DNA of 64,000 nt from a virus. The DNA lies in IMG/VR virus record IMGVR_UViG_3300029199_000001; one strand, given 5' to 3'. Positions 1,799-43,025 of the stretch are shown here, piece after piece (within the stretch, counting starts at the first letter, position 1; the number at the start of each line of letters is the position of its first letter). Both the position numbers and the translations under genes were made by a program. The notes under the pieces are model-generated. The model saw nothing but the letters and a program-made list of their open reading frames with translations. It made no database searches and was not told the origin of the DNA.

Positions 1799-4204
1799 TT
1801 ACACGGCAGCGGGTGGGAATTTGACCACCGGGTGACTTTCATATCCAACGATCTTAATGTCGTCGTACGTAAAGTCGAACAGGTTGTCAATCTCAGGGTT
1901 CAATTCCACCGTCGGGGCCGGAACGTTCAAAGGCTCCCGATCCAACTGTTCGTGGATGCCTTCAAACTGGTTCTTGTAGATGTGACAATCACCACCGGTC
2001 CAAATGAACTCGTCCGTGGCCATCCCAACTGTACGAGCCACCAGGTGAGTCAGAAGCGAGTATTGAACGATATTGAAGGGCACTCCAATCGGGTAGTCCG
2101 CACTGCGCTGATAGAGTTGACACGACAACGCCCGCCGTGGAACCTTGTAATGGTCCAACAGAGCGTGTAACGTCACGGTATCGCACACCGCGTCACCGTC
2201 GTTGGCTTGACTGACCTCGCCCAGCTCACGACGGTACTGGTCCATGGTCTCACGACCCAGATGGGTTACCAACCAACTCTCACGCTCACTGGAGTCCATC
2301 TCACGGGTGTAAAACTGGAACAGGGTATGACAATTGTGATTAACTATGTTACTTACAGTGTACGTGTGTTCCTCCTCAACATCAAGATTATAAACTGTTG
2401 TGTTTGAATCACCGTAGAATATTTTTCTTATTGGTACCCACATGTACTCGTCATCATATTCCACATTGGTGTTATTCTTAGATTTCGATCCACTTCTTGA
2501 TTTTAGGTGGTATGTATTCTTTTGGTTCACCACCCTGCCTTCTATTTCCGTTTTATCTGGACGAACTTGAAACCCAGTACCGACAGCGTGATCTTGTTCA
2601 GCAAACAGACGTTGGAGCCCCAAAATAATATTGGGTGACGTACAACAAATATCGAAACGACCCTCGTCAATCCGATACCCATCTGCCGCTAAGAACCCAT
2701 CGATAAAAGCTTTCTTGGCACCCATTGTCGAAGTCATAACCCAGTCTGGGATAATTTTATTATGAGCACCACTCCCAAAACTTCTAAATACTGAGATCCA
2801 TTTTTCAGAATGAGTCATGTATGTAGATACATTGTCGCCACTACCGGGTTTTCTTGATACTTTTATTGTTTTCCTTAAACGTGGAAGTATTTCATCAACT
2901 TTACTGTGAGGAATGGCAAACGATATTCTATTTTCGTTCACACTTGCCCACCCATTACCGAGAAAGTAACCAAATGTGTAGTAATCTTCGTTTGTACATT
3001 TTACAGTACGATGTATTTGCTTACCACTCGACCCATGATTGATACTGTAGTTAAACTCCAAATCTTTAATTGACTTGGTTTTCGGGATTGCTAAGTAATC
3101 CCCTTCCTTTAGATCTTTAGCGTCCACCCATCCCTTATTTCTAACTAGAAATGGGTGATTTGGAGTACAGGCGATTGGAACACCCACTAGGGCAGGTCTA
3201 ATATAAAGTATTTTGCCTTTATATGGAGTTCTCCATACTTTGTTTATTCTGCGTTCCTGACCGGTCCCGGAGTGAACAACATCACCCTCAGTTAGAGTCT
3301 CTATTTTCTTATAACCGTCGGGTGTGCTAACCAGACTTCCAGGTATAAAACACGGTGGGAGTGCCATCTCTTCGATCTCCGCCGCGTTCCAGGCACTGAC
3401 AATGATCCGTCGAGAATCGGGGTTGGTTTTCAGTTGGTCAATGACCTTCTGAATTTGATCGATCTTCCGGTGGACGATCGCAATTTCCTCACCCAACTCG
3501 GCATCGAAGTACTCATTCAACAGCACAAAGCCGTTGTTTTGGTACCAGTCGTCGGTAACCCAGATATCCATCGGAACCAGTCGAGTGTCTTCCCATTGAC
3601 GCCACTGGTGTTGATAGATCTTGGGGAGTTCCCCAGCCACCAAGAACCGTTCCGGCATGTCGTGGTCTTTCATCCACTTCAAGATTGCATTGACCGCTGG
3701 ATGGTCATCACCGACGTCCTGACCGGCCCACGGGAATTCGCCCTTGATATGGAAGTGGAGAATCTCGGCTTCGCTCAGATGCTCACGCAACATGAAAACG
3801 AACGAGGGTTCCAGTTTTCTACGTCGGATGATGGCGAACCAGTCATCCCAGGTGGCTCGACGGTATTGTGCTGTTTCTGGTTTTACCCAACTGTTCCAAA
3901 TGCTCACGCCGTGGGCGTTGAGGTACTGCACGTTGGTATCGCCTGACAACATCCAGAGCAGTTCGTGAACGATGCCCTTGGTGAACACCTTCTTACTGGT
4001 GAGCAGTGGAAGTTTCTTGTTGCTGATGTCAAAGCGCATTTGACGGCCGAACACCCCTTGCGTACCTACACCGGTGCGGTCCACTTTGGACGTGCTTTGC
4101 TGCTCATCCAAAATGTCTTTAATAACACCGAAATACTGAACGTCGGCGTCGCTTGGCGTAATAGGTAGTATGTACGGAGCGTGCATGTCATCAATCTTTG
4201 GCAT
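1799..4204 (-). CDS. thyA: thymidylate synthase precursor containing an intein
   Basis: DRTGVGT, KKVFTKGIVHELLWMLSG, PDSRRIIVSAWN, MALPP|CH, YQRSAD, GVPFN and GDCHIY motifs. Confidence 0.97.
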   Translation of the reverse strand: MPKIDDMHAPYILPITPSDADVQYFGVIKDILDEQQSTSKVDRTGVGTQGVFGRQMRFDISNKKLPLLTSKKVFTKGIVHELLWMLSGDTNVQYLNAHGVSIWNSWVKPETAQYRRATWDDWFAIIRRRKLEPSFVFMLREHLSEAEILHFHIKGEFPWAGQDVGDDHPAVNAILKWMKDHDMPERFLVAGELPKIYQHQWRQWEDTRLVPMDIWVTDDWYQNNGFVLLNEYFDAELGEEIAIVHRKIDQIQKVIDQLKTNPDSRRIIVSAWNAAEIEEMALPPCFIPGSLVSTPDGYKKIETLTEGDVVHSGTGQERRINKVWRTPYKGKILYIRPALVGVPIACTPNHPFLVRNKGWVDAKDLKEGDYLAIPKTKSIKDLEFNYSINHGSSGKQIHRTVKCTNEDYYTFGYFLGNGWASVNENRISFAIPHSKVDEILPRLRKTIKVSRKPGSGDNVSTYMTHSEKWISVFRSFGSGAHNKIIPDWVMTSTMGAKKAFIDGFLAADGYRIDEGRFDICCTSPNIILGLQRLFAEQDHAVGTGFQVRPDKTEIEGRVVNQKNTYHLKSRSGSKSKNNTNVEYDDEYMWVPIRKIFYGDSNTTVYNLDVEEEHTYTVSNIVNHNCHTLFQFYTREMDSSERESWLVTHLGRETMDQYRRELGEVSQANDGDAVCDTVTLHALLDHYKVPRRALSCQLYQRSADYPIGVPFNIVQYSLLTHLVARTVGMATDEFIWTGGDCHIYKNQFEGIHEQLDREPLNVPAPTVELNPEIDNLFDFTYDDIKIVGYESHPVVKFPPAAV
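2333..3352 (-). mobile_element. 340-aa intein with LAGLIDADG homing endonuclease
   Basis: Begins CFIPGSLV; block B ACTPNHPFL; LAGLIDADG-like GYFLGNGW and DGFLAADG; ends VYNLDVEEEHTYTVSNIVNHN followed by C; visibly AT-rich. Confidence 0.95.
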
Positions 4205-4224
4205 GTCTCGATTCCTATGGTGTG

Positions 4225-4917
4225 TCAGTTGGTTTGTTGTGCGTCGGCGGGAGCCGCCATGGCCAAGACGTCATCGACCGATTGCGTCAGGTCTTGCCCA
4301 ACCGCTTCGTTGTAGCCTTCTTCCTCAGGCAGGAGGTGGTTGGCATCGCAGATGAAAATCTGACGGAACGACTCCGGGGGCGTATCCACGAACTTGGGGT
4401 TGGTGGCCATCAACGCGTAATTGGTCAGAATGAAGTTGGTGTCCAGACACTGAACCATCTTCAACCGCAGTGGCCGTTCATCCACGGTGAACTCGTTGAG
4501 GTCGAAGTGTCCGTTGTTGACCGTCACTACGGCATCGGCCAGAAGTTTCCGCGCCACGGTATTGAGGATAATCCCCAGTGTCTGCGCGGAGGTACGTGCC
4601 CGCAAGATCAATTCGTAGCCGAGTTGCTCGGCCAGTCCAACCGAGTAGGAGAACGACACCGGACCGTCCACACTCTGAATGGAAAACCCGCCATCCTTAA
4701 CCCGCTGACGGTGTTCTTTGGCCAGCTTTTCGGTGTTGAACTGAACGATCATTTTCAGCAAGGCGTTGTACACTTCTTCTTTTGTGTACGAATCGTCCTT
4801 GGCCTGATCCAACAAACCTTCAATTTTAAGTTCGTTGACTTGGTTGTTGGATAATTCTTCCAGTACCGCAATCTGCGGGGCGTTAAAGCCGAGGTCTTCC
4901 AGTTGTTGAATATCCAC
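4225..4917 (-). CDS. hypothetical protein with probable DUF4262-like domain
   Basis: FSYSVGL...YELIL segment resembles DUF4262 (recalled, not searched). Confidence 0.55.
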   Translation of the reverse strand: MDIQQLEDLGFNAPQIAVLEELSNNQVNELKIEGLLDQAKDDSYTKEEVYNALLKMIVQFNTEKLAKEHRQRVKDGGFSIQSVDGPVSFSYSVGLAEQLGYELILRARTSAQTLGIILNTVARKLLADAVVTVNNGHFDLNEFTVDERPLRLKMVQCLDTNFILTNYALMATNPKFVDTPPESFRQIFICDANHLLPEEEGYNEAVGQDLTQSVDDVLAMAAPADAQQTN

Positions 4918-4945
4918 AGTTCGATTCCTTAATGGTCGTTATGAT

Positions 4946-5275
4946 TTAAAGTCCGGCTTGACGCTTGCGGTTTTCCGCCTTGCGTTTCCGTTTTTCTTCA
5001 GCGGCTTGCAGTCGCTGTTGCTGAATGTGTTTCGGGTCTTCCCGTTTCTTTTTCTTCTTCCGGCCTTTCCCGAACGGGGTCATGATGCCGTTGGCTTCCA
5101 AGGCACCCAATACTGCGTTGATTGGTTTCACGTTGTCCTCCTTTACGTTTATGATGTCGGGGCCATCGCCGTAGCGCTCAATCCCCATGGTTCTTAATTT
5201 ATCCACAATGGTGGCGGTCACACCGGGTTTCCAGTGATCAATGACGCCGATCACTCTGGGTTTTTCGTCGTTCAT
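4946..5275 (-). CDS. hypothetical protein with basic C-terminus (109 aa)
   Basis: AAGGGA RBS; promoter motif upstream. Confidence 0.7.
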   Translation of the reverse strand: MNDEKPRVIGVIDHWKPGVTATIVDKLRTMGIERYGDGPDIINVKEDNVKPINAVLGALEANGIMTPFGKGRKKKKKREDPKHIQQQRLQAAEEKRKRKAENRKRQAGL

Positions 5276-5360
5276 GTCGGTCCCTTAACGCAAACCAGAT
5301 AACATCTATACCAATTAAACCCCCATACGTGTTGCCTTTTATTGTTTCAATGTCATCTGG

Positions 5361-5369
5361 GTGATATAG
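5361..5369 (-). promoter_or_regulatory. CTATATCAC putative early promoter core
   Basis: Exact motif copy, intergenic. Confidence 0.6.
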
Positions 5370-5381
5370 ATGTGGGGAAAC

Positions 5382-6104
5382 TTAGAGTCGTGCCAGGGTC
5401 AGTCCTTTCTGGTTCTGGTACTTCCCACCTTTATCAGCGTAAGAAACGTCGCACGGGCGGTCGCCTTCAAAGAACATGAACTGCGCAATGCCCATCCCCG
5501 CATAGACTTTCATCGGCAGGGGCGAGCAGTTGGCGATCTCAATCACCACGTTGCCTTTGAACTCCGGCTCGATCGGGGTGACGTTGACAATGGAGGCCAG
5601 TCGTGCGTACGTGGATTTCCCCACACACACCACCATGACATCGCGGGGAATATCGAACCATTCCATGGTGGTGCCCAGAATGTAGCTGTTGGGTGGGATG
5701 ATGCAGTAATCGCCCACGTGTTCAATGAAACAATCCGGATCGGGGTTCAATGGATCGATCATGGCGTTACGTGCGTTGGTAAAGATCTTGAATTCCCGGC
5801 CCAGACGCACATCGTATCCGTAAGACGACAGCCCGTAGGATACAATTCGTTCCCCATCGACTTCTCGCACTTGCTCCGGGGAGAACGGGGCAATCATCGG
5901 TTTGAACTCTTTGACTTCCGGACAGTCATCGTCCAATTCAACGGCGCAGTATCGACGGGCCAAGTCGTCCAGCTTCTCGGCGGTGTACGTGTGGTCTTTC
6001 CAGGCCAACTCCCGAGTACCGGTACGGTTGGTGATGAAATCCCCCACCATGTGAGTGGGTGGTACGCAAAGCTTGTAGATACTGTGGTCGGAGAGGATGC
6101 TCAT
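5382..6104 (-). CDS. dcd: dCTP deaminase
   Basis: [29 protein letters not shown] and [11 protein letters not shown] motifs. Confidence 0.95.
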
Positions 6105-6176
6105 AGGGCGGTTTCCTTGGTGGTTGACTTATGTTATGACTTTGTTCGTCTACCCATTCATTGAAGAGATAAACGT

Positions 6177-8222
6177 ATGTTTTCTGGCATTCGACGACTG
6201 CTCGGGAATGTCCGAGTCGTCCAAACCGAAAAAGAAATTGTAATCACCGGCCTACCAGCCGATGTTATTCAGCGGGACATCTCCAAAATCTGGAAAACGT
6301 CCCGAATCAACAAACACATGTTCTCAACGGCGTCACGTAACACGTTGTCGTTTCCGTTGTTCTTTGCTCCCGACGTGTACTACATGTTGGATACCATGAC
6401 CACCCACCGGTCGCGATGGACCAACGTGCGTACCATCGCTAAGATCAAAGATCTGTTGATGACTGAAACCTGGCTGCGGGATACCCAACTGGAACCGCAA
6501 CCTCGGGTGGATTTGAAACGACTCAATAACCTGATTTACAAACCGCTGGATTACCAGCAAAAGTTCTTTGAGTCGTACGACCTGTTGAAACAACAATACC
6601 ACCTGATGGGTTATCTGTTGTCAGCGGTAGCCGGGAGTGGTAAGACGTACATCTCGTTGGCTTTGGCCGAATGCTTGAAAGCCGAACGGATTGTGATCGT
6701 CTGTCCCAAGAACGCCATCGACCGTGTCTGGCACGGCGAGATTCAGAAGCTGTTCAAGAAACCACAATCGCACTGGATCTATGCCCACGGCAAACCGTAC
6801 AAGAATGAACGCATAGCTGTGTTCCATTACGAGTCTCTGAACGTGGCCATGGATATGGTGGAGTCTCTTAAATCATCAAACACGGTGGTAATTCTTGATG
6901 AATCGCACAACCTGAATGAGATTCAGTCGTTGCGGACACAGCTGTTCTTGGACATGGTGGAAAAGCTGGATGTCGAGGATACCCTGTGGATGTCGGGTAC
7001 CCCGATTAAGGCTCTGGGCGGTGAGAGTATTCCGTTGCTGAAATCCATTGATCCCTATTTCACCAAGGACGTGCAGGAACGGTTCAAGAAGATCTTTGGT
7101 CGTGACGGTAACCGTGGGGTGGACATCCTCCGCCAGCGCATGGGCGTGATCTCGTACAAGGTGGAGAAACATCAGTTGGGGCTGGACAAACCGGTGATGA
7201 AGAAACACAAGGTGGTCATCCCCAACGGCAAAGACTACACCCTCAAGGCCATCCGTAAAGACATGCAGGCGTTCATCACCGAACGTGTACGGTACTACCA
7301 GGCCCGAAAGAAAGGCGATCTGGAGTTTTACTACCGGTGTATGACACTCCATGAAAAGACGCTGAGAAAAGGGTCCTCCGACAAAGACCTGTTGCAATAC
7401 TTTGCGGACGTGGACGTGGTGATCAAGAACAAGGGTGACGCTCGGTTCTGTAAAGACGAGATCCAACGGACCAACTGGTACGAGAAACACCGGGTGATTC
7501 CGTCACTACCCAAAGAACTGCGCAACGAATTCAAGAACGTCAAGTCCATTGTGAAGTACGTGAACCTGAAGATCCAGGGTGAAGCCTTGGGTCGCGTGTT
7601 GGGTCGCAAACGCATTCAGTGTCATGTGGACATGGTACCCTACATCGACTTCAAAGGGATCTGTAACTCGACCGAGAAGAAGACGGTGGTGTTTACCTCG
7701 TTTGTTGAGGCGTTGGAAGCCTCGAAGAATTTCTTGGACACGGTACAGATGAACCCGGTGGCGGTGTACGGTAAAACCAACAGCGAACTGAACAAAACGA
7801 TTCAGATGTTTGAGAAACAAGAAGACCTCAACCCGCTGATTGCCACCTACCAGTCACTGTCCACAGCGGTACCTCTGGTCATGGCCGACAACATGATCAT
7901 GATCAACGCCCCATTCCGTGCCTACATCCACGAACAGGCGATTTCCCGGATTCACCGTCTGGGTGCCGATACGCAGACTACAGTTTGGGAAGCCAGTCTG
8001 GACACCGGTCAGGAGCCTAACATCTCCACCCGTTCGGGGGACATCCTGGCCTGGTCCCAACAACAGGTGGAGCAGATCATGGGCATCAAGTCCCCGTTCG
8101 AAGTGGAAGAGGGCGATGGTAGGGTAACGGTCGCCAACGAGGACTACGGTCTTGCCAACACGGTCACCGTGACGGACGTTCTGGCAGGATCAAAGGAATC
8201 GCCATCGTACATGGACTGGTAA
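6177..8222 (+). CDS. superfamily 2 (DEAD/SNF2-like) helicase typical of phiKZ-like phages
   Basis: AGSGKT Walker A, LDESH Walker B, MSGTP, QAISRIHRLG motif VI. Confidence 0.9.
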   Translation: MFSGIRRLLGNVRVVQTEKEIVITGLPADVIQRDISKIWKTSRINKHMFSTASRNTLSFPLFFAPDVYYMLDTMTTHRSRWTNVRTIAKIKDLLMTETWLRDTQLEPQPRVDLKRLNNLIYKPLDYQQKFFESYDLLKQQYHLMGYLLSAVAGSGKTYISLALAECLKAERIVIVCPKNAIDRVWHGEIQKLFKKPQSHWIYAHGKPYKNERIAVFHYESLNVAMDMVESLKSSNTVVILDESHNLNEIQSLRTQLFLDMVEKLDVEDTLWMSGTPIKALGGESIPLLKSIDPYFTKDVQERFKKIFGRDGNRGVDILRQRMGVISYKVEKHQLGLDKPVMKKHKVVIPNGKDYTLKAIRKDMQAFITERVRYYQARKKGDLEFYYRCMTLHEKTLRKGSSDKDLLQYFADVDVVIKNKGDARFCKDEIQRTNWYEKHRVIPSLPKELRNEFKNVKSIVKYVNLKIQGEALGRVLGRKRIQCHVDMVPYIDFKGICNSTEKKTVVFTSFVEALEASKNFLDTVQMNPVAVYGKTNSELNKTIQMFEKQEDLNPLIATYQSLSTAVPLVMADNMIMINAPFRAYIHEQAISRIHRLGADTQTTVWEASLDTGQEPNISTRSGDILAWSQQQVEQIMGIKSPFEVEEGDGRVTVANEDYGLANTVTVTDVLAGSKESPSYMDW

Positions 8223-8239
8223 CCACCAACGACATAGCG

Positions 8240-8260
8240 GCCCTGGGTGATCCAGGGCCT
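8240..8260 (+). terminator. hairpin after helicase
   Basis: GGCCCTGG/CCAGGGCC stem followed by TTT. Confidence 0.55.
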
Positions 8261-8276
8261 TTAATAGGAAACAGTC

Positions 8277-8645
8277 ATGGGTACAGAAGCATTAAGAACC
8301 TCGATCCAGCGGTTCACCGCCGCCATCATTGATCGAACCTCACTTGGGTACGGTACCATTGCGGTGCAAGAGACCGCGTCAATCGCGGCCGGTGCTCAGC
8401 GTCAGTATGACCTGGCCGCTTTGTTGGTCAATAACCCCAACGCCTTCGACTACCGTGGGTCGGCCATCATTGTTAAGGTTCTGGATACCGACGCTAATTC
8501 CCCCACGCACAACACGTACGTCGATGCCAGCGCGATTGTCAGTGCGGGTGTCAATGACAGCGGGACCGTCGTTATACACAACCACAGCACGATGAATTTG
8601 TCGTTCTATATCCGGATTGACGTACCGCATAGTCCGAATCAGTAA
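8277..8645 (+). CDS. small putative virion/tail protein (122 aa)
   Basis: AGGA RBS; beta-rich composition; adjacent to the fibre-like gene. Confidence 0.55.
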   Translation: MGTEALRTSIQRFTAAIIDRTSLGYGTIAVQETASIAAGAQRQYDLAALLVNNPNAFDYRGSAIIVKVLDTDANSPTHNTYVDASAIVSAGVNDSGTVVIHNHSTMNLSFYIRIDVPHSPNQ

Positions 8646-8660
8646 CCAGGAGTGTTGAGT

Positions 8661-10451
8661 ATGCCACAGGTCACCCCTGATAAACGCCCGGCGTATTACA
8701 CCGGGTCTGTAACCATCAACTGGACATTCACCTCGGATGTGACGGAAGTGGCGTTTAACACCAACGGTATCCCACCGGCCATTTCCAAGTACATCGCCTA
8801 CGACACGTTGAACCCACCGAACCCGTTCATCGCCGTCACCCAAGACGGTCGGGGCAATGTGGTGTATGACGGCGGTTTCCCTAAGTTCTATAACAACAAG
8901 GCACCAGCGTCGACCGTTAACAGTTTCTCAGGCCTGAACGCCAGTTTTAAATACTTGTACAACGCATTGAACTTTGTGGCCAATCCGGAGAAGGTTGCGG
9001 CAGGAAACCGTAAGGTACTGCTGTTAGGTGACGCCCATGGGACGAGTAGTTATCAAGTGAAGGGAACACGATCTTCGGATTTCCGGACCAGTTTTGAGCG
9101 TTTGGCAGCAGTCGCTGGGTACGACATTACCATCAAAGACGGGTCGGATTACGGTGGGTCACTGGATGCCCGCCTGGCTGAATTGGATCAATACTGCTGC
9201 GTCATCTACATGTCCTCCCGTTACGCGTCAGATTGGCAGGGCTCGATCACCGAAGCTTGTGTGTCGGATCTGGTCAGTTACCGGTACCAGGGCAACGGAC
9301 TGATCATCATCACCGACCACGGGAACTACCCCTCCAGTTTGGAAACGGCGGCTTACTCAAGCACGGGGTTTTTCGTAGGGGCGAACCGACTGATTGTGAA
9401 CTTTGGCGCGTACTTCAAAGGCAACTACGACCGTACGTCGGTGAACGTGGGGTTCTTACGTAACAACTACGGTGATCACCCACTGTACAATGGCATGGCG
9501 GGCTCGGAATACATCTCTGCAGGCGGTTCTGAGAGTCAGGTGGTGGTCACTGAGACACCCACCATGGCCCCAGGCAATTTCCCACCCACCGTACTTGACC
9601 AACCCGGTCAGTACGACTTGAACTTCCTGATGCTCACCGCGTCCGGCGAAGTTGCCACGGTTCGGTATGCCTATACGGTCGGCGAAGGGAACTTCCTGTT
9701 TGTGGAGATGATGGACGGACCCAATGACACTCAGTCCATGAAAACCCCGCACCGTCGGTTTGTCTACCCCCTACACAACAGCAAACCTAGTTTTGGGACA
9801 CTGCAAGGTGAAGTGTTGGTGAATGACATCCCGGTGGGCGAGTTCAACGTGGATGATAACGGCACCACTTATAAATGGTACGCTGGTCCTGGAGCTGGGT
9901 TTCCCATCGACAATGGGCCGCAGGCATTCACACTCCACGTCACCACCCCAGTGCTGTATTACTTGGATCTGACCATTGAGGGCTTACCGCCTCAGTCGTT
10001 GGTGGCTCTTCCAGAAGTCGTCACCCCAGCCAGACTCGCTAAATGGTTGGATGTCTACGATTTCACAGCAGTGCCCGACCGACAGCGTTTGCGGGCGTTC
10101 GCGGAACAGGCGACCCAAACATTGACGCAGGGTCCACAGGTCATCGACGCAGCCCGTCAGAAACTGGCGATTGACCGATACCTACAACCCGTGCCCGAGT
10201 TTGGACTCTACGTTTTCCAATCCACGACGGAGTTCAGCAATGGTCGCGGAGTCATCCCAAGCGACCACGTGTCCGCCATTGTGGTGGAAGGCACCAACAT
10301 ATACCTCTACAAGCGCACAGGAAGCTCTTGGGAGCGGGTTACGGACGTAACCAACTTCTCGTACCTGTTTGGTAACTCGGCCCGTGTGCGGGCTCTGAAC
10401 ACCGGTGTCGTCTATCAGTACACAACCGCCGGTGGTTTGGTGGTCGCCTAA
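8661..10451 (+). CDS. putative tail fibre/virion structural protein (~596 aa)
   Basis: AGGAG RBS; G/N/S/T/Y-rich; C-terminal motif similar to the 52-55 kb fibre-like proteins. Confidence 0.55.
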   Translation: MPQVTPDKRPAYYTGSVTINWTFTSDVTEVAFNTNGIPPAISKYIAYDTLNPPNPFIAVTQDGRGNVVYDGGFPKFYNNKAPASTVNSFSGLNASFKYLYNALNFVANPEKVAAGNRKVLLLGDAHGTSSYQVKGTRSSDFRTSFERLAAVAGYDITIKDGSDYGGSLDARLAELDQYCCVIYMSSRYASDWQGSITEACVSDLVSYRYQGNGLIIITDHGNYPSSLETAAYSSTGFFVGANRLIVNFGAYFKGNYDRTSVNVGFLRNNYGDHPLYNGMAGSEYISAGGSESQVVVTETPTMAPGNFPPTVLDQPGQYDLNFLMLTASGEVATVRYAYTVGEGNFLFVEMMDGPNDTQSMKTPHRRFVYPLHNSKPSFGTLQGEVLVNDIPVGEFNVDDNGTTYKWYAGPGAGFPIDNGPQAFTLHVTTPVLYYLDLTIEGLPPQSLVALPEVVTPARLAKWLDVYDFTAVPDRQRLRAFAEQATQTLTQGPQVIDAARQKLAIDRYLQPVPEFGLYVFQSTTEFSNGRGVIPSDHVSAIVVEGTNIYLYKRTGSSWERVTDVTNFSYLFGNSARVRALNTGVVYQYTTAGGLVVA

Positions 10452-37792: not shown

Positions 37793-38221
37793 TCAGTCCT
37801 TTTGTCGAATCCGATGAACCACATTTTGCACAACGCGTAACCAGCGTTTCTCCGAGTTCCGGAGTTCCCGGTTGGGTTCACGCCACACAATCTGACCAGG
37901 GTGTTGCTTCAGGATTTCGACCGTCATGGGTGATTGACGAAGGTTGTGTTGAAGGGTCATCTCCAACATCCGTTCCAGTCCAATCACGTTCTCCCAACTG
38001 TACTTATTTTTCACCGCCAGCTCGGACGTATCCTTGGCGCGTAAGAACCGCTGGTTGTTGCCGGAAGTGATCACGTAGTAGTAATACCCGGCGTACATGT
38101 GAAAGGTCCGTTCGTCAATGGTCTGCTTAGGGGCACTGTGATAGTACCCCAAGACCCGCCCAAGCGGGTTGTCAGTGCGTGGTGCGATGTTGATTACGCT
38201 ACTGCTAAGTGCTGCCGTCAT
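37793..38221 (-). CDS. hypothetical protein (142 aa)
   Basis: Abuts the upstream gene. Confidence 0.65.
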   Translation of the reverse strand: MTAALSSSVINIAPRTDNPLGRVLGYYHSAPKQTIDERTFHMYAGYYYYVITSGNNQRFLRAKDTSELAVKNKYSWENVIGLERMLEMTLQHNLRQSPMTVEILKQHPGQIVWREPNRELRNSEKRWLRVVQNVVHRIRQKD

Positions 38222-38223
38222 AA

Positions 38224-38979
38224 TTATCCCTTATCGCGTTTAGACGGGGGTGTTATAGATAGTGGATCACGGATGGTTACCGTGTGCAGACTGATGTCCG
38301 TGGGATCTTTGGACCAACGCATTTCGAGGATGTAGTCCTCCTGCTTCGGTCCCAAGGCCACCAAGCCTCGCCGGAACACGTTCCACGACATGCGTGGGGC
38401 GAGTAAGTCGCGATGCAATGCATTGATCGCACTGTTGATCTCCTGACGCGTCTGCGGAACACCCTGCAATGGGTTCTTGACATATTCCTCCAACAACGCG
38501 TTCCAACGGATCACGTCGATTTCTTCCTCCGTAACAATCCGACGGAAAAGGCGGGCCAGTGTGTTGGCTGGCTTTTTCATGTCGCTGAACACGTTGCTTT
38601 CCTCAGGCCCAAACGTATTCAGTTCGGGATCGGCTTCGTCTTCAGCGGGATCAATCTTAATCGGGTAACGCGAGACCCGACCGCTTTTCCACGTCAGTTG
38701 TATGGTCAGTGTTGCCGACACAGGGTTGAGAAAATCGACCCCTTTCTTGAACGTGGCCCACGTGAAATCGTCGTGGGTTAATGCCTTGTTCAAGTTGCCT
38801 TTGTCGGCCTTCTTTTTGTTGTGAGGTTTTTCAAAGAATAACTTTGCCCTCTTGTTCCACGTAAACTGGTTGACCTTGCGCCACAACAGGGTGTTGCGGA
38901 ACAGGTAACACAGTATGCCCTGCGCTCGGTTCGTTCCTTTTAAGGGATCGGCGAGCAGATCTTTTACATCTTGATTCAT
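38224..38979 (-). CDS. conserved jumbo-phage protein with two internally repeated domains (251 aa)
   Basis: Halves share an L--LFR...W...NL--AL......W--F--G---L-P pattern. Confidence 0.65.
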   Translation of the reverse strand: MNQDVKDLLADPLKGTNRAQGILCYLFRNTLLWRKVNQFTWNKRAKLFFEKPHNKKKADKGNLNKALTHDDFTWATFKKGVDFLNPVSATLTIQLTWKSGRVSRYPIKIDPAEDEADPELNTFGPEESNVFSDMKKPANTLARLFRRIVTEEEIDVIRWNALLEEYVKNPLQGVPQTRQEINSAINALHRDLLAPRMSWNVFRRGLVALGPKQEDYILEMRWSKDPTDISLHTVTIRDPLSITPPSKRDKG

Positions 38980-39738: not shown

Positions 39739-40248
39739 ATGACTGAACATAAAGACGGTGGCGATGCCACCATGGAATATCGCGAGACATTGAATTACAG
39801 CCAAGGCGTGCGAAAACGCATCGTCGACCACTTTGTAGGTGAGGGCAGTATCCCCAGTGACCCCAAGGAACTGAACGTTGTCCTTAAGGCACTGGGGGAT
39901 ATGGATAAGACCGTGTTGATGGATCGGAAGAACGACATCGACCAAGGCAACGCCGACACCTCGAAACAGGTGGCCGAGGCCATGAGCGAGTTCATTCAGA
40001 TGCAGCAGAACAAGAACCCATTCCAGCGTTCGACCGATGGGGGCGTTGTGCCCCAACAACCAGCACCCGAGTCACTTCAGCCGCCCAGTGTGGATGTGGA
40101 GAAGCTGGGCGATTATCAATTGGTGGAAGGTGAAACCGAAGTGGGTGTGGTCAATGAATCCTACAAGGAGTTCATGGCCCGCATGGAAAAGGAAAAGGAA
40201 AATGGTGTCCGTCCGGCTCCTACCGGGGATGAGGACGTGGGTGATTAA
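39739..40248 (+). CDS. hypothetical protein (169 aa)
   Basis: GGAG RBS; followed by a terminator. Confidence 0.7.
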   Translation: MTEHKDGGDATMEYRETLNYSQGVRKRIVDHFVGEGSIPSDPKELNVVLKALGDMDKTVLMDRKNDIDQGNADTSKQVAEAMSEFIQMQQNKNPFQRSTDGGVVPQQPAPESLQPPSVDVEKLGDYQLVEGETEVGVVNESYKEFMARMEKEKENGVRPAPTGDEDVGD

Positions 40249-40268
40249 AAAAGAAAAGGACCGAGTGA

Positions 40269-40298
40269 CAGAGGGGCACGCGCCCCTCTGTTTATGCC
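40269..40298. terminator. hairpin followed by TTTATGCC
   Basis: CAGAGGGGC/GCCCCTCTG. Confidence 0.7.
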
Positions 40299-40645
40299 GA
40301 CGTCACGTAGTACGTGGGTCGATAGAACTGGTGATTGCCTACTGTACTAACCGCCTGCATGTTGTCCCAATTGGGTACTACAGTGTGATTATGGTAGTTG
40401 ACAATCTGTTCGGCATAAGGCAACTCGGCGACCTTCTTGAGGTGTAGGTACTCGACCGCAATCAAGTACGCCTCCTTGTAGGCCTCTTCATCGGTGACTT
40501 GGTCTGACCGGCCATCGTGGGTCCAGCTGAACTGATACGCCTCTCTGACGACGCCACAGGCCGTCTCAGGCCACCATTTCTTCTTCATGCGGTTGACCAC
40601 GACCTGAGCAACGAGTTCTTGGCCCAGTTCGGGCTCACCACGGGC
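40292..40645 (-). pseudogene. orphan 3' half of a SleB-type cell wall hydrolase (ARGEPELGQELVAQVVVNRM...), lacking N-terminus and catalytic Glu
   Basis: Frame open from GCC at 40645 with TAG directly upstream; homologous to the 3' half of 41311-41958. Confidence 0.75.
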
Positions 40646-40651
40646 CTAACC

Positions 40652-41305
40652 TTACAGCGAAGTGTAGTGCGGATCGGGTTTGTTAGAGTATCGATTTGGT
40701 GTTTCCACTGCTTCCTCAGGGCTCATACCCATGACGCGAATCCGATATCTAAGCATAGACTCTTTAACCCCAGTACGTCTGGAGAGTTCCATAAACGTGT
40801 GTTCCACACCACGGTATTCAATCCTGGCACTATGGGTTTGATTTTGAGCCTGCTCTAAACGAGTTGCCCAATAACAATTCTGTTTTGTGTAATCCCCATC
40901 ATTGTTAATCCTTTCGATGGTGTGTTTTGGTGTCGGTTTCTCACCCATATCGCTTAAGAAAGCTTCGAAGTCCTCCCAACGGGGGTCGTATTTTATTCCA
41001 CGACCCCCGTAGTATGGGTAATCACTGGCTTTTGGATTTCCACAACGATTCTTCATTGCCTGCCAGCTTTTGTAAGTAGGGTTATTGCTTTTACCATGCT
41101 TACGAAACATTTTGGAAACACGTTCTTTGTGGTAGCACCCGCAACTTTTTGTTTTATTGCCCGTAAGTTGATAACTGATCACAGTTACCTCATTGCCACA
41201 AGAACATAGACAGCGCCAGCGCCGTCTACCTTTTTCTTTAGGTTCTAAACGAACAACGGTAAGTCTGCCAAAGGTCTTACCTGTTAAGTCAAGAGCACTA
41301 CCCAT
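40652..41305 (-). CDS. free-standing HNH homing endonuclease
   Basis: DLTGKTFGRLTV, WRCLCSCG, KSCGC, YYGGRGI and TIERINNDGDY..NCYWAT motifs; AT-rich. Confidence 0.9.
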   Translation of the reverse strand: MGSALDLTGKTFGRLTVVRLEPKEKGRRRWRCLCSCGNEVTVISYQLTGNKTKSCGCYHKERVSKMFRKHGKSNNPTYKSWQAMKNRCGNPKASDYPYYGGRGIKYDPRWEDFEAFLSDMGEKPTPKHTIERINNDGDYTKQNCYWATRLEQAQNQTHSARIEYRGVEHTFMELSRRTGVKESMLRYRIRVMGMSPEEAVETPNRYSNKPDPHYTSL

Positions 41306-41310
41306 TTTAC

Positions 41311-41958
41311 TTATCCCCTTGTATAGAAAATATGCGCCCCCTCAACTACCGCGACCGTGAGATTATACCAACCTGGATTCACGTAGTCGGCATGGTAATT
41401 TAATAGACGTTTTGCGTTTTCAACATCAGCTACTTTTTTCAATAGAAGATACTCTATTGCAGTTGTGTAAGCCTTCTCATACGCCACCCGATCACGAACT
41501 TGGTCACTCTTACCGTCATGGGTCCAGCTGAACTGATACGATTGACGGATGACCTCGCAGGCGGTGTTGGGGTAATGTCGGTTTTCCATCCGATTGACCA
41601 CGACCTGCGCTACCAACTCCTGCCCGAGTTGGGATTGGTTACGTGATTCATGGTAAATGTTTACCGCTAGGCATTCGACTTCGTTCCAATCGGCGGTCAT
41701 GACATCGTTACCTTTCGGTAGGTCGATGGCAATGTTGTCCCGCCAGGTTTCCGGGGGTACGTCGTGGACGGTGCGGACGATCTTACCGCTAACCCCGTTA
41801 GGAGTGGCGACCTCAACCACCTGAGTCTCAGGGGTCGGTTCAAAGAACGCATGGTTAATGACGATCGAGTTCGGCAATTGGGCAAAGACAAACAGGATCG
41901 CCCCCATCAGAATCACAAACAAAGCCTTGGCTTCGTGGTTTGTTTCATAGGTGGTCAT
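41311..41958 (-). CDS. SleB/Hydrolase_2-type cell wall hydrolase with N-terminal TM segment
   Basis: CLAVNIYHE (catalytic Glu), VAQVVVNR and YQFSW motifs; ATG at 41958 after AGGAG. Confidence 0.88.
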   Translation of the reverse strand: MTTYETNHEAKALFVILMGAILFVFAQLPNSIVINHAFFEPTPETQVVEVATPNGVSGKIVRTVHDVPPETWRDNIAIDLPKGNDVMTADWNEVECLAVNIYHESRNQSQLGQELVAQVVVNRMENRHYPNTACEVIRQSYQFSWTHDGKSDQVRDRVAYEKAYTTAIEYLLLKKVADVENAKRLLNYHADYVNPGWYNLTVAVVEGAHIFYTRG

Positions 41959-42014
41959 GGTCATCACTCCTCTTTTGAATTGAGTATAATGCACATCATT
42001 GACAAACCCTACGA

Positions 42015-42188
42015 TTAAAACTGACGGTTGACGAAGTTCACCGCAGCGGCCACACCGGCGGTTGCAGCGGCACCCACGGCAATGTAGGTGACGTGTTTGG
42101 CGGCGGATTGACCTTTGATGGTCCGACGATCCAAGTTGATTTTCTTGTTGCGGGTGTTGAAGCTTACGGGGCCAACTTTAATGATCAT
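42015..42188 (-). CDS. small protein with C-terminal hydrophobic helix (57 aa, MIIKVGP...)
   Basis: ATG at 42188 with GAGGA; promoter motif upstream. Confidence 0.65.
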   Translation of the reverse strand: MIIKVGPVSFNTRNKKINLDRRTIKGQSAAKHVTYIAVGAAATAGVAAAVNFVNRQF

Positions 42189-42247
42189 GATACTTTTCCT
42201 CAAAGTAATGTGATAAGGGTTAACTCGATTGGAGTTATACCACCTGA

Positions 42248-42256
42248 GTGATATAG
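42248..42256 (-). promoter_or_regulatory. CTATATCAC putative early promoter core
   Basis: Exact copy downstream of a terminator. Confidence 0.65.
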
Positions 42257-42282
42257 GCGTCAGTTTGCTTGGAATTGAAGAC

Positions 42283-42309
42283 GGCATAAACGCCGTCCCG
42301 AAGGACGGC
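42283..42309 (-). terminator. UUCG hairpin followed by GUUUAUGCC
   Basis: GCCGUCC-UUCG-GGACGGC. Confidence 0.75.
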
Positions 42310-42314
42310 ACTTA

Positions 42315-43025
42315 TTATTCGGGCGGTTTGTTCAATGGGCGGAACATCGAGAACCACGACGGGTCGATGAACTCCAGCTCCAAGTGGTCCAAGAACCCCA
42401 ACCGGAACGCCACGAACTCGTCGCGCTTTTGTTCGTCCGTCAGGCGTTCGGGTTTGCGCTCGAACAACCGGGGAATGATGAACGTCACGTCCCGACAATG
42501 ACACCTCACCAACGCCGTGTGGTGGTGGCGCACCCATTGATGAAAATCAAACAGGATCATGGCATCGTAGTTATCCCGGATGAATTCGGGGGTGAGCTCG
42601 TCCAAGGGACGGGAGATGAAGAACACCGGGAGATCCTTGTACGTGTTCATCTTAAGGATGTCCGCCAGCTCCTCCATTTCCTCGTCGTCGAACGGGTACG
42701 GGGCCACGTTGATTTCAACCGCCACCTCGTCGGCTGTCATGCCTTCTTTCATGTTCTGGTGGTACTCAGCCAGAACCCGCCCCAGCACCGCCAGGATCGA
42801 CGTCATGACGGATTCCCTCAGGGTTTCCTTGTCACGCTGTTCCCAGGCTTCGGTGAACTGCTCGTTGTTCAGGTACCCATTGGACAGTTCGTGCCAGTCC
42901 GTGTGTTCCCGATCCCAATAACGGTCGCCCTGAATGACCTGAATCGCCGCTTCGGGGTTGAGCTTCGCCACCGTCCCCAGTCGGGTGTCCAACAGACCGT
43001 CCAAATCAATGTAGATTTTACGCAC
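42315..43025 (-). CDS. conserved jumbo-phage protein with N-terminal DxD (HAD-like) motif
   Basis: IYIDLDGLLDTRLG; GGAG RBS. Confidence 0.6.
   Translation of the reverse strand: MRKIYIDLDGLLDTRLGTVAKLNPEAAIQVIQGDRYWDREHTDWHELSNGYLNNEQFTEAWEQRDKETLRESVMTSILAVLGRVLAEYHQNMKEGMTADEVAVEINVAPYPFDDEEMEELADILKMNTYKDLPVFFISRPLDELTPEFIRDNYDAMILFDFHQWVRHHHTALVRCHCRDVTFIIPRLFERKPERLTDEQKRDEFVAFRLGFLDHLELEFIDPSWFSMFRPLNKPPE

Follow-up and report, generated by a model that had tools for sequence, protein, structure and literature searches.

A probable intron-less homing cassette carrying a spare gene end at a conserved Glu codon of a phage cell wall hydrolase gene

Introduction

The mORF gene hybrids of fungal mitochondria, described for Allomyces macrogynus atp6, for Glomus atp6, atp9, cox2 and nad3, for Rhizopus atp9 and for Mortierella cox2 (PMC3630166), consist of a gene core, a foreign C-terminal part, an endonuclease open reading frame (ORF) and the displaced native C-terminal part. 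In T4-like phages, the free-standing endonucleases SegF, SegG, SegB and MobE carry out intron-less homing with co-conversion, while for T4 intron homing, one-sided homology suffices and the other side is closed by an illegitimate junction (PMC2988022). In this study, we analyze a phage locus with the same four parts as the mORF hybrids. It lies in a stretch of 64,000 nucleotides (nt) from IMG/VR virus record IMGVR_UViG_3300029199_000001; this whole stretch is referred to below as the window, and all positions are given in it unless another locus is named. The locus comprises a working gene for a predicted SleB-type cell wall hydrolase, a gene for an HNH-like nuclease, and an orphaned second half of a hydrolase gene, and it is probably the product of a homing cassette. 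The source record is a 231.8-kb virus with terminal repeats, and the phage is present in gas-well, subsurface, freshwater and marine metagenomes.

To our knowledge, homing endonuclease genes are usually said to survive in essential genes only within a self-splicing intron or intein, and otherwise to lie between genes. Endonuclease insertion may also leave a gene in pieces, as in the nrdA gene of Aeromonas phage Aeh1, which is split by mobE, and in T4 gene 39/60 with mobA. In both cases the gene is translated as two separate parts, which assemble with each other, and no part of it is present twice. The locus described here would represent another solution in phages, in which the nuclease gene brings along a replacement for the gene part that is cut off.

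Results

The hydrolase gene is divided at a conserved Glu codon

All features of the locus are encoded on the minus strand. The hydrolase ORF (41958..41311) is of the SleB type, encodes 215 amino acids (aa) and begins with an ATG start codon, ahead of which AAGAGGAG is found at a spacing of 8 nt. Its product reads ...NIYHE followed by SRNQSQLGQELVAQVVVNRM...IFYTRG, and the gene ends in a TAA stop codon (41313-41311). The native first half of the gene (41647..41958) has 104 codons, which encode an N-terminal membrane helix, a linker and, as the final codon, the Glu (GAA, 41649-41647). It is joined to an imported second half (41311..41646; 111 codons plus TAA), and together they form the working hybrid gene. 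Within the imported half, a GC-rich first part (41479..41646; SRNQSQ...THDGKSDQV) is genome-like in codon composition and foreign in sequence, while the AT-rich last part (41311..41478) is continuous in composition with the nuclease gene. The latter part also contains the ribosome-binding site (RBS) of the nuclease gene, AGGGGA (41319-41314), within the final hydrolase codons.

A 5-nt spacer separates the hydrolase TAA from the free-standing nuclease gene (40652..41305), which encodes 217 aa and ends in TAA. It is followed by the right junction hexamer GGTTAG (40646..40651), whose TAG is in frame with both the nuclease gene and the orphan downstream. The orphan, which is the displaced native second half (40292..40645), has 117 codons plus TAA and extends from ARGEPELGQELVAQVVVNRM to QFYRPTYYVTSA, with neither a start codon nor the Glu of the first half. 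Its frame starts ARGEPE, one residue past the Glu position of ...NIYHE in the first gene. Both GAA and GAG are in use for this Glu codon in relatives, which bears on whether the AG that precedes the orphan is the relic of a GAG codon. The original prediction, which was made from the sequence of the window alone, had described a hydrolase locus split at its catalytic Glu, a second 3′ half 6 nt past the nuclease stop codon and a nuclease RBS inside the last hydrolase codons; every one of these elements is present where it had been placed.

The Pfam family Hydrolase_2 (SleB/CwlJ) is matched by both the hybrid gene (67.1 bits) and the orphan (72.7 bits) above the cut-off of 27 bits. The hydrolase also matches phrog_938 (endolysin) and the SleB structures 4F55 and 4FET at E values of ~1e-6. 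The Glu that precedes an [AS]-R motif, E104 of the 215-aa product, is invariant in 60/60 homologues and aligns with YGE of SleB in 4F55 and 4FET. This Glu is presumed to be catalytic, and the hybrid is a predicted cell wall hydrolase. Residues 8-28 (window 41875-41935) form a single N-terminal hydrophobic helix, AKALFVILMGAILFVFAQLP, with no evident cleavage-site-like motif, and the hydrolase may be a lysis enzyme of the membrane-anchored or signal-anchor-release type. Among GenBank phages, megablast with the locus gave no match and the best proteins are at most 34% identical; scans of IMG/VR with the orphan and with the first half found no relatives.

A nuclease-free relative shows the empty site

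The closest nuclease-free relative, L014, lies on a 226-kb Logan contig. It is collinear with the window, has flanks that are 85-90% identical, and carries no nuclease gene and a single hydrolase gene, which encodes a 221-aa protein (P0002). BLAST of the window against L014 gives two blocks, 44500-41467 to 3440-6492 and 40645-38000 to 6313-8951. In a three-way alignment, near-identity on the left stops at the Glu codon (41647), and homology of the orphan resumes at the very next codon (40645, corresponding to L014 6313). The first half is 98-99% identical to L014 over 42008-41759 and 87-90% identical over the last 150 nt, and 2 of its 104 residues are changed relative to P0002. In aa sequence, the orphan shares 89% identity with the second half of P0002, which is of the ARGE type and ends in YYVTSA. 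At the nucleotide level, orphan and L014 differ at the third positions of the Ala and Arg codons, are then free of mismatches for ~160 nt from the Gly codon, and remain homologous (~86%) into the downstream flank. Thus, the window carries a clean insert of 1001 nt (41646..40646) between the Glu codon and the next codon, with no native sequence lost or duplicated. The insert is made up of the foreign second half, the 5-nt spacer, the nuclease gene and the 6 nt of the right junction.

Joining 41958-41647 to 40645-40292 had been predicted to give a normal 221-aa protein, and this is indeed the length and the sequence type of the nuclease-free P0002. Similarly, a nuclease-free relative had been expected to combine the first half with an end of the orphan type, and L014 holds just one such gene. 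We regard it as probable that the locus arose by intron-less homing of an HNH-like nuclease gene into the catalytic-Glu codon, with a spare gene end carried along. This agrees with the original prediction of a homing cassette that replaces the end of the gene it invades: the empty site of L014 and the differing origins of the two second halves (see below) speak for it, while cleavage is deduced from the breakpoints.

Two further observations were made in the comparison with L014. Identity to L014 is 96-99% at window 41760-42260, around the start of the hydrolase gene, and ~98% where the orphan begins (40480-40645, ~160 nt), compared to 75-88% in many neighbouring stretches. In addition, synonymous divergence from L014 is 0.26 for the first half and 0.75-1.0 for the flanking genes. 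The raised identity near the insertion site may reflect recent exchange around the target; similar patches are found elsewhere, e.g. at 38000-38600.

Downstream of the orphan, a native terminator-like hairpin (40247..40290) is located between convergent genes. Its stem is formed by 40290-40282 and 40277-40269 and is followed by a T-rich run (40258-40247). The hairpin has a folding energy of -21.6 kcal/mol (z -3.95), is conserved in L014 and now lies at the end of the hydrolase-nuclease-orphan unit. It was missed by a simple terminator scan because the T run begins 10 nt past the stem.

The orphan as a retained sequence

The ratio of non-synonymous to synonymous divergence (dN/dS) from L014 is 0.13 for the orphan, 0.04 for the first half and 0.05-0.11 for neighbouring genes, and the orphan has acquired neither a stop codon nor a frameshift. 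Since its divergence from L014, the orphan has thus belonged to a working gene during the greater part of the time, and the insertion is recent on that scale.

The low dN/dS and the 117 open codons, for which gene callers predict a 98-aa product, could also mean that the orphan is kept for a function of its own, either as a separate protein of 98-102 aa that lacks the catalytic Glu or as the downstream homology arm of the cassette. The latter role is consistent with contigs from the marine run X5. In this run, one contig is identical to window 40571-40996, i.e. the 3′ part of the nuclease gene, the junction and the start of the orphan, whereas neighbouring contigs differ from the window by 14% (40246-40598) and 5% (41476-41929); 40997-41475 is not covered. 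The contig that matches 41476-41929 at 95% ends at the boundary between the GC-rich and AT-rich parts of the imported half. This suggests that the cassette of X5 either has a variant form or lies in a background that has diverged, and an identical junction in a diverged background fits the orphan as a second homology arm. However, the low dN/dS of the orphan stems mostly from its time within an intact gene, and its branch shows an excess of changes, albeit a non-significant one (24 vs. 13 nt changes, p 0.10; p 0.39 for aa; relative-rate test). Furthermore, no Shine-Dalgarno-like sequence is seen ahead of an internal ATG or GTG. We therefore hold that the orphan is unlikely to be kept for a function, and prefer to see it as the piece of the native gene that homing has displaced.

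Related nucleases recur at the same codon in other phages

The closest relatives of the nuclease that could be placed all adjoin a Hydrolase_2 gene. In L018, a TARA scaffold (L018 positions 1462-2436), a nuclease gene 66% identical to that of the window begins no more than about a dozen bases past the gene of hydrolase P0008, and the context of the hydrolase stop codon, ...GGGGA-TAG, has the same arrangement as in the window. GC content at third codon positions (GC3) of this hydrolase gene is 0.81 before the Glu codon, similar to 0.77-0.79 in the upstream genes, and 0.45-0.50 from the codon after the Glu; that of the nuclease gene is 0.48. L018 is thus probably a second hybrid of the type found in the window, with the same breakpoint.

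A different arrangement is found in L038, L039 and L040, which are AT-rich phages that also have a Peptidase_S80 gene. Their nucleases are 52-54% identical to that of the window, and the nuclease gene ends six bases before an intact 140-aa Hydrolase_2 gene, whose product is 28% identical to the window's hydrolase. Directly ahead of the nuclease gene is a 16-codon native 5′ stub behind the native RBS, so that the order is RBS, 5′ stub, nuclease gene, 6 nt and intact gene (L038:2900-4065; L039:650-1800; L040:19-1161). Homology of the stub ends just before the Glu codon: the stub reads ...LTIFF, and the intact gene ...LTIYFE SRSES. These loci form a mirror image of the window, in which the spare gene end is a 5′ end and stands behind the nuclease gene, with a break one codon away from that of the window. 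In the related L049 and L050, which represent naive alleles, the native upstream region runs directly into the gene. The nuclease gene is thus present or absent at a defined site in two sets of relatives, namely the window vs. L014, L015 and L016, and L038-L040 vs. L049 and L050.

In addition, L045-L048 lack 670 nt with the nuclease gene relative to L039 and retain both 5′ ends. In this nuclease-lost allele (L045:2755-3410, and likewise in L046-L048), the stub has become an 18-codon mini-ORF that overlaps the hydrolase start (ATGA).

These loci raise a broader proposal, to which we give even chances: the nuclease would belong to a clade that, across widely differing phages, is specialized on SleB-type hydrolase genes and their catalytic-Glu codon, where it would live by a third strategy besides introns and inteins, either with a spare 3′ half before the nuclease gene (window and L018) or, as in L038-L040, with a spare 5′ end behind it. 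The native piece left stranded would serve as a homology arm for further homing, and recombination between the duplicated parts would give rise to cut-resistant nuclease-free alleles such as L015 (see below) and L045.

The same data bear on ordinary phage mosaicism, by which illegitimate recombination with another phage would have brought in an end of the hydrolase gene, with a nuclease gene as passenger; the nuclease would then be neither the agent nor directed at this gene. Phage genomes are mosaic, window-to-L014 identity ranges from 62% to 99% along the region, and cleavage by the nuclease is putative. Moreover, the imported half is itself a patchwork: identity is 82% to L015 over the first 60 nt, at most 66% to any relative over the next 108 nt, and 70% to L017 over the last 168 nt. 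On the other hand, the left junction keeps both register and reading frame at a homologous codon, and in three lineages with related nucleases the breaks fall within one codon of the same Glu, in hydrolases that are down to 28% identical. It is also only the closest nuclease clade that adjoins Hydrolase_2 genes; scans of IMG/VR and JGI metagenomes with the nuclease yielded 19 loci with 33-57% identity over the best matched segment, none of them beside a hydrolase gene. Mosaicism without a role of the nuclease is thus quite unlikely, and we favor the nuclease as the agent because related nuclease genes recur at the same codon in other lineages.

The two second halves have different origins

At the protein level, the working half and the orphan are 56% identical (E 4e-45) and homologous along their full length. 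Their DNA has ~60% matching columns, with 68%, 62% and 51% in three successive segments, and the imported half is at most 68% identical in nucleotide sequence to either the orphan or L014. GC3 of the working half is 0.61-0.70 in the first 168 nt and 0.38 in the last 168 nt, compared to 0.41 in the nuclease gene, 0.65 in the first half of the hydrolase gene and 0.65-0.72 in the orphan. The original prediction that the end of the working gene is AT-rich like the nuclease gene, and the orphan genome-like, thus holds.

Its claim that the two 3′ halves differ in origin is likewise borne out by a maximum-likelihood tree of 62 second halves. The orphan groups with P0002 inside a clade of membrane-anchored jumbo-phage genes (support 100/99), while the nearest neighbours of the working half are P0007 (99/93) and, next, P0008, both of them shorter hydrolases of the signal-peptide type. 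A sister relation of the two halves of the window is rejected by 41.6 log-likelihood units (approximately unbiased (AU) test, p 0.03).

In-place tandem duplication of the second half, with divergence and later entry of the nuclease gene between the copies, is therefore very unlikely. It would account for homology along the whole length of the halves and for the short perfect DNA blocks that they have in common; nevertheless, the orphan is far closer to the half of a relative (89% identity) than to its own neighbour (56%), the tree rejects the sister relation, the compositions differ, and only a single copy is present in the nuclease-free relative, where no remnant of another is seen.

The N termini of P0007 and P0008 are signal-peptide-like, unlike that of the window's hydrolase. 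P0007, the closest relative of the working half, is encoded at L017:139-645, where GC3 is 0.45-0.47 in the 3′ part of the gene vs. 0.67-0.70 before it; a thymidylate-kinase-like gene follows in place of a nuclease gene. L017 may represent a converted or nuclease-lost allele.

Independent assemblies contain the same junctions

A chimeric metagenome contig made of two strains' versions of the gene, for which one might cite the metagenomic source and the existence of variant strains (run X5), is hardly conceivable, since the same 1901 nt are found with 100% identity in contigs of four other data sets, which were assembled from different samples (ENA, Logan and JGI). Two of these contigs have lengths of 43 kb and 230 kb. 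In addition, each junction is spanned by a contig of its own in data from two independent studies, the one between hydrolase and nuclease gene by a contig of 992 nt and the one between nuclease gene and orphan by a contig of 426 nt.

An all-against-all search for local duplicates that flank a gene found, genome-wide, only ordinary paralogue families at 23-35% identity. Tandem paralogue families with 23-39% identity are located at G000:C1:121451-131409, 155179-158388 and 134046-143829 and are unrelated to the cassette.

The nuclease is a single-copy, HNH-like protein with its own translation signals

The nuclease gene is present in a single copy in the genome. In comparisons with PHROGs, its product matches phrog_374 (‘HNH endonuclease’, E 4.4e-70) as well as phrog_3377, phrog_2081 and phrog_953, which carry the same label. 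Relatives in AFDB clusters are named HNH endonuclease or AP2 domain protein, and these names, like the PHROGs labels, are automatic or uncurated. No NCBIfam family and no PDB sequence was matched.

AlphaFold models of the nuclease have a pLDDT (predicted local distance difference test) of 90.7 for the whole protein and 87 for the core. They display an N-terminal beta zinc ribbon (CxCxC...CGC, with invariant C32, C34, C36, C55 and C57), a core of two strands followed by a helix (E66-69, E81-84 and H86-94), and a C-terminal helix-turn-helix. A zinc ribbon of this type, named CapR, has been described for endonucleases of ICP1 (PMC10448857). In a structural comparison with 48,161 chains, the top match of both the whole and the core models is the HNH restriction enzyme PacI, although the match is weak (Z 5.4 and 5.6, for 73 and 80 residues, respectively). 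A conserved block of the nuclease, ER-I-[DN]-N-x-x-x-Y-x-x-x-N-C-x-W-A-x-x-x-E-Q-x-x-N, resembles HNH_3. Further invariant residues are H70, R87, YGGRG (99-103), W110, R132, Y139, N143, W146 and N155. H70, Y139, N143 and N155 could serve as alternative catalytic residues; PacI is reported to use a Tyr.

The gene has its own ATG and AGGGGA site, a stop codon precedes it, and two stop codons lie between it and the orphan. An Rfam scan of 39800-42400 gave no intron match, even at E 1. With all three frames separated by stop codons, the locus apparently contains neither a group I intron nor an intein, and the cassette is intron-less, as had been proposed originally.

Nuclease-free mosaic alleles

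Two more distant relatives, L015 and L016, are collinear with the window and free of the nuclease gene. In their hydrolase gene, ...YQE-SRNQSQLGQELVAQVVVNRM is followed by sequence of the orphan type, and the SRNQSQ patch is 42-60 nt long. Over nt 0-42 past the Glu codon, L015 is 83% identical to the working half and 62% to L014, and over nt 60-100 it is 53% identical to the working half and 95% to L014. The switch falls in a conserved block, CAGGTCGTGGTCAA, that is common to both halves in the window. It is possible that L015 and L016 are recombinants that have lost the nuclease gene through a crossover between the two halves of the cassette, leaving a foreign patch over the presumed target.

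Discussion

We propose the following course of events. An HNH-like nuclease gene would have entered the SleB-type hydrolase gene of a phage of ~232 kb at the catalytic Glu codon. The nuclease would cut naive alleles at, or at most a few bases away from, the Glu codon, and the break would be repaired by copying from a genome that bears the cassette. In the first jump between unlike phages, only the gene side would offer homology, and the opposite end would be closed by an illegitimate join. Once present, the orphan would provide homology on both sides, enabling normal homing among related phages. The resident hybrid junction, which encodes SRNQSQ and is changed at the majority of synonymous sites, would resist the nuclease. 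Recombination between the halves would then remove the nuclease gene, yielding immune nuclease-free mosaic alleles such as L015. As regards target escape, all seven LGQELVA codons differ between the two copies, but relatives are no less different here, so that saturation of synonymous changes accounts for the observation equally well.

Several points weigh against this account. The target site at the Glu codon is one that we infer only from coincident breakpoints in three lineages, and one of these, L018, is on a contig that ends inside the nuclease gene, ahead of its predicted orphan. Neither the nuclease nor any of 35 relatives has a Pfam match (E up to 1), Foldseek against PDB with the whole model and with the core returned nothing significant, its weak list being rich in HNH domains, and an invariant Arg takes the place of the first His of HNH_3 enzymes. 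The HNH label of the original prediction thus has a counterpart in phrog_374 (E 4.4e-70) and a weak one in PacI, the best structure, and none in Pfam or NCBIfam, and the first His is missing; we retain ‘HNH-like’ for the protein, with a weakly supported HNH identity and putative catalysis. Placement of the working half as a basal member of the jumbo-phage clade is not rejected (AU p 0.45), and the donor may therefore be a fairly close relative. The imported half is also mosaic in itself, its first 168 nt being genome-like in composition, and the history took more than one step. Finally, SRNQ-like motifs are common in the wider family, where Asn and Gln recur at the positions concerned and Gln is found in 24/60 homologues, and the L015 patch could be an old polymorphism. 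As to the expectation that nuclease-free relatives lack the SRNQ-type end, L014 has the ARGE type, and in L015 and L016 SRNQSQ is confined to the patch of 42-60 nt, which agrees with a recombinant that has lost the nuclease gene more than it speaks against the original prediction.

If the proposed reading is correct, selfish nucleases have a route by which pieces of lysis genes move between unrelated phages, creating hybrid enzymes. It would also account for orphan gene fragments beside ‘HNH’ genes in phage annotations, and it carries a warning that different histories are blended in the phylogenies of such genes. From the coincidence of the breakpoints, a cleavage site can be predicted for a nuclease family without a Pfam model. 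By comparative data, naive, invaded and lost states are visible in two lineages, with the presumed target pinned to one codon; should the specialized clade be real, the whole cycle of invasion, spread and loss would be visible in metagenomes. In the full-text literature, we found no phage precedent for duplication of a gene end by a homing endonuclease, although one may still exist.

The locus can finally be compared with the three closest systems. As in Aeh1 nrdA and T4 gene 39/60, an essential phage gene harbours a free-standing gene for an HNH-type endonuclease, with neither an intron nor an intein; unlike in those cases, the invaded gene stays in one piece by means of the spare end that is supplied. 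With the Seg and Mob endonucleases of T4-like phages, the window shares a free-standing nuclease gene that has neither intron nor intein, its presence or absence among close relatives, and the targeting of a conserved gene. Furthermore, the spread of Seg and Mob is coupled to co-conversion of adjacent gene sequence, as is proposed for the window. However, the genes of Seg and Mob are intergenic, and the sequence replaced by co-conversion is not kept as a duplicate, whereas the nuclease gene of the window is inside the original span of its target gene and the replaced part is kept as an orphan. The review of T4 homing mentions no duplication (PMC2988022).

The likeness is greatest to the mORF hybrids. 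In both systems the native part is closer to relatives than the foreign part is, with 91-98% vs. 64-81% nucleotide identity in Glomus (PMC3630166) and 89% vs. 56% aa identity in the window, and both are read as horizontal transfer carried by an endonuclease. The mORFs are mitochondrial, encode LAGLIDADG or GIY-YIG enzymes and are often in phase with the gene, whereas the element in the window belongs to a phage, encodes an HNH-like protein with a zinc ribbon and helix-turn-helix, and is a separate cistron with its own RBS. In addition, a related phage lineage has a mirror form with a spare 5′ end, a form of which we found no description for mORFs. The locus in the window thus works like an mORF hybrid, outside those element families.

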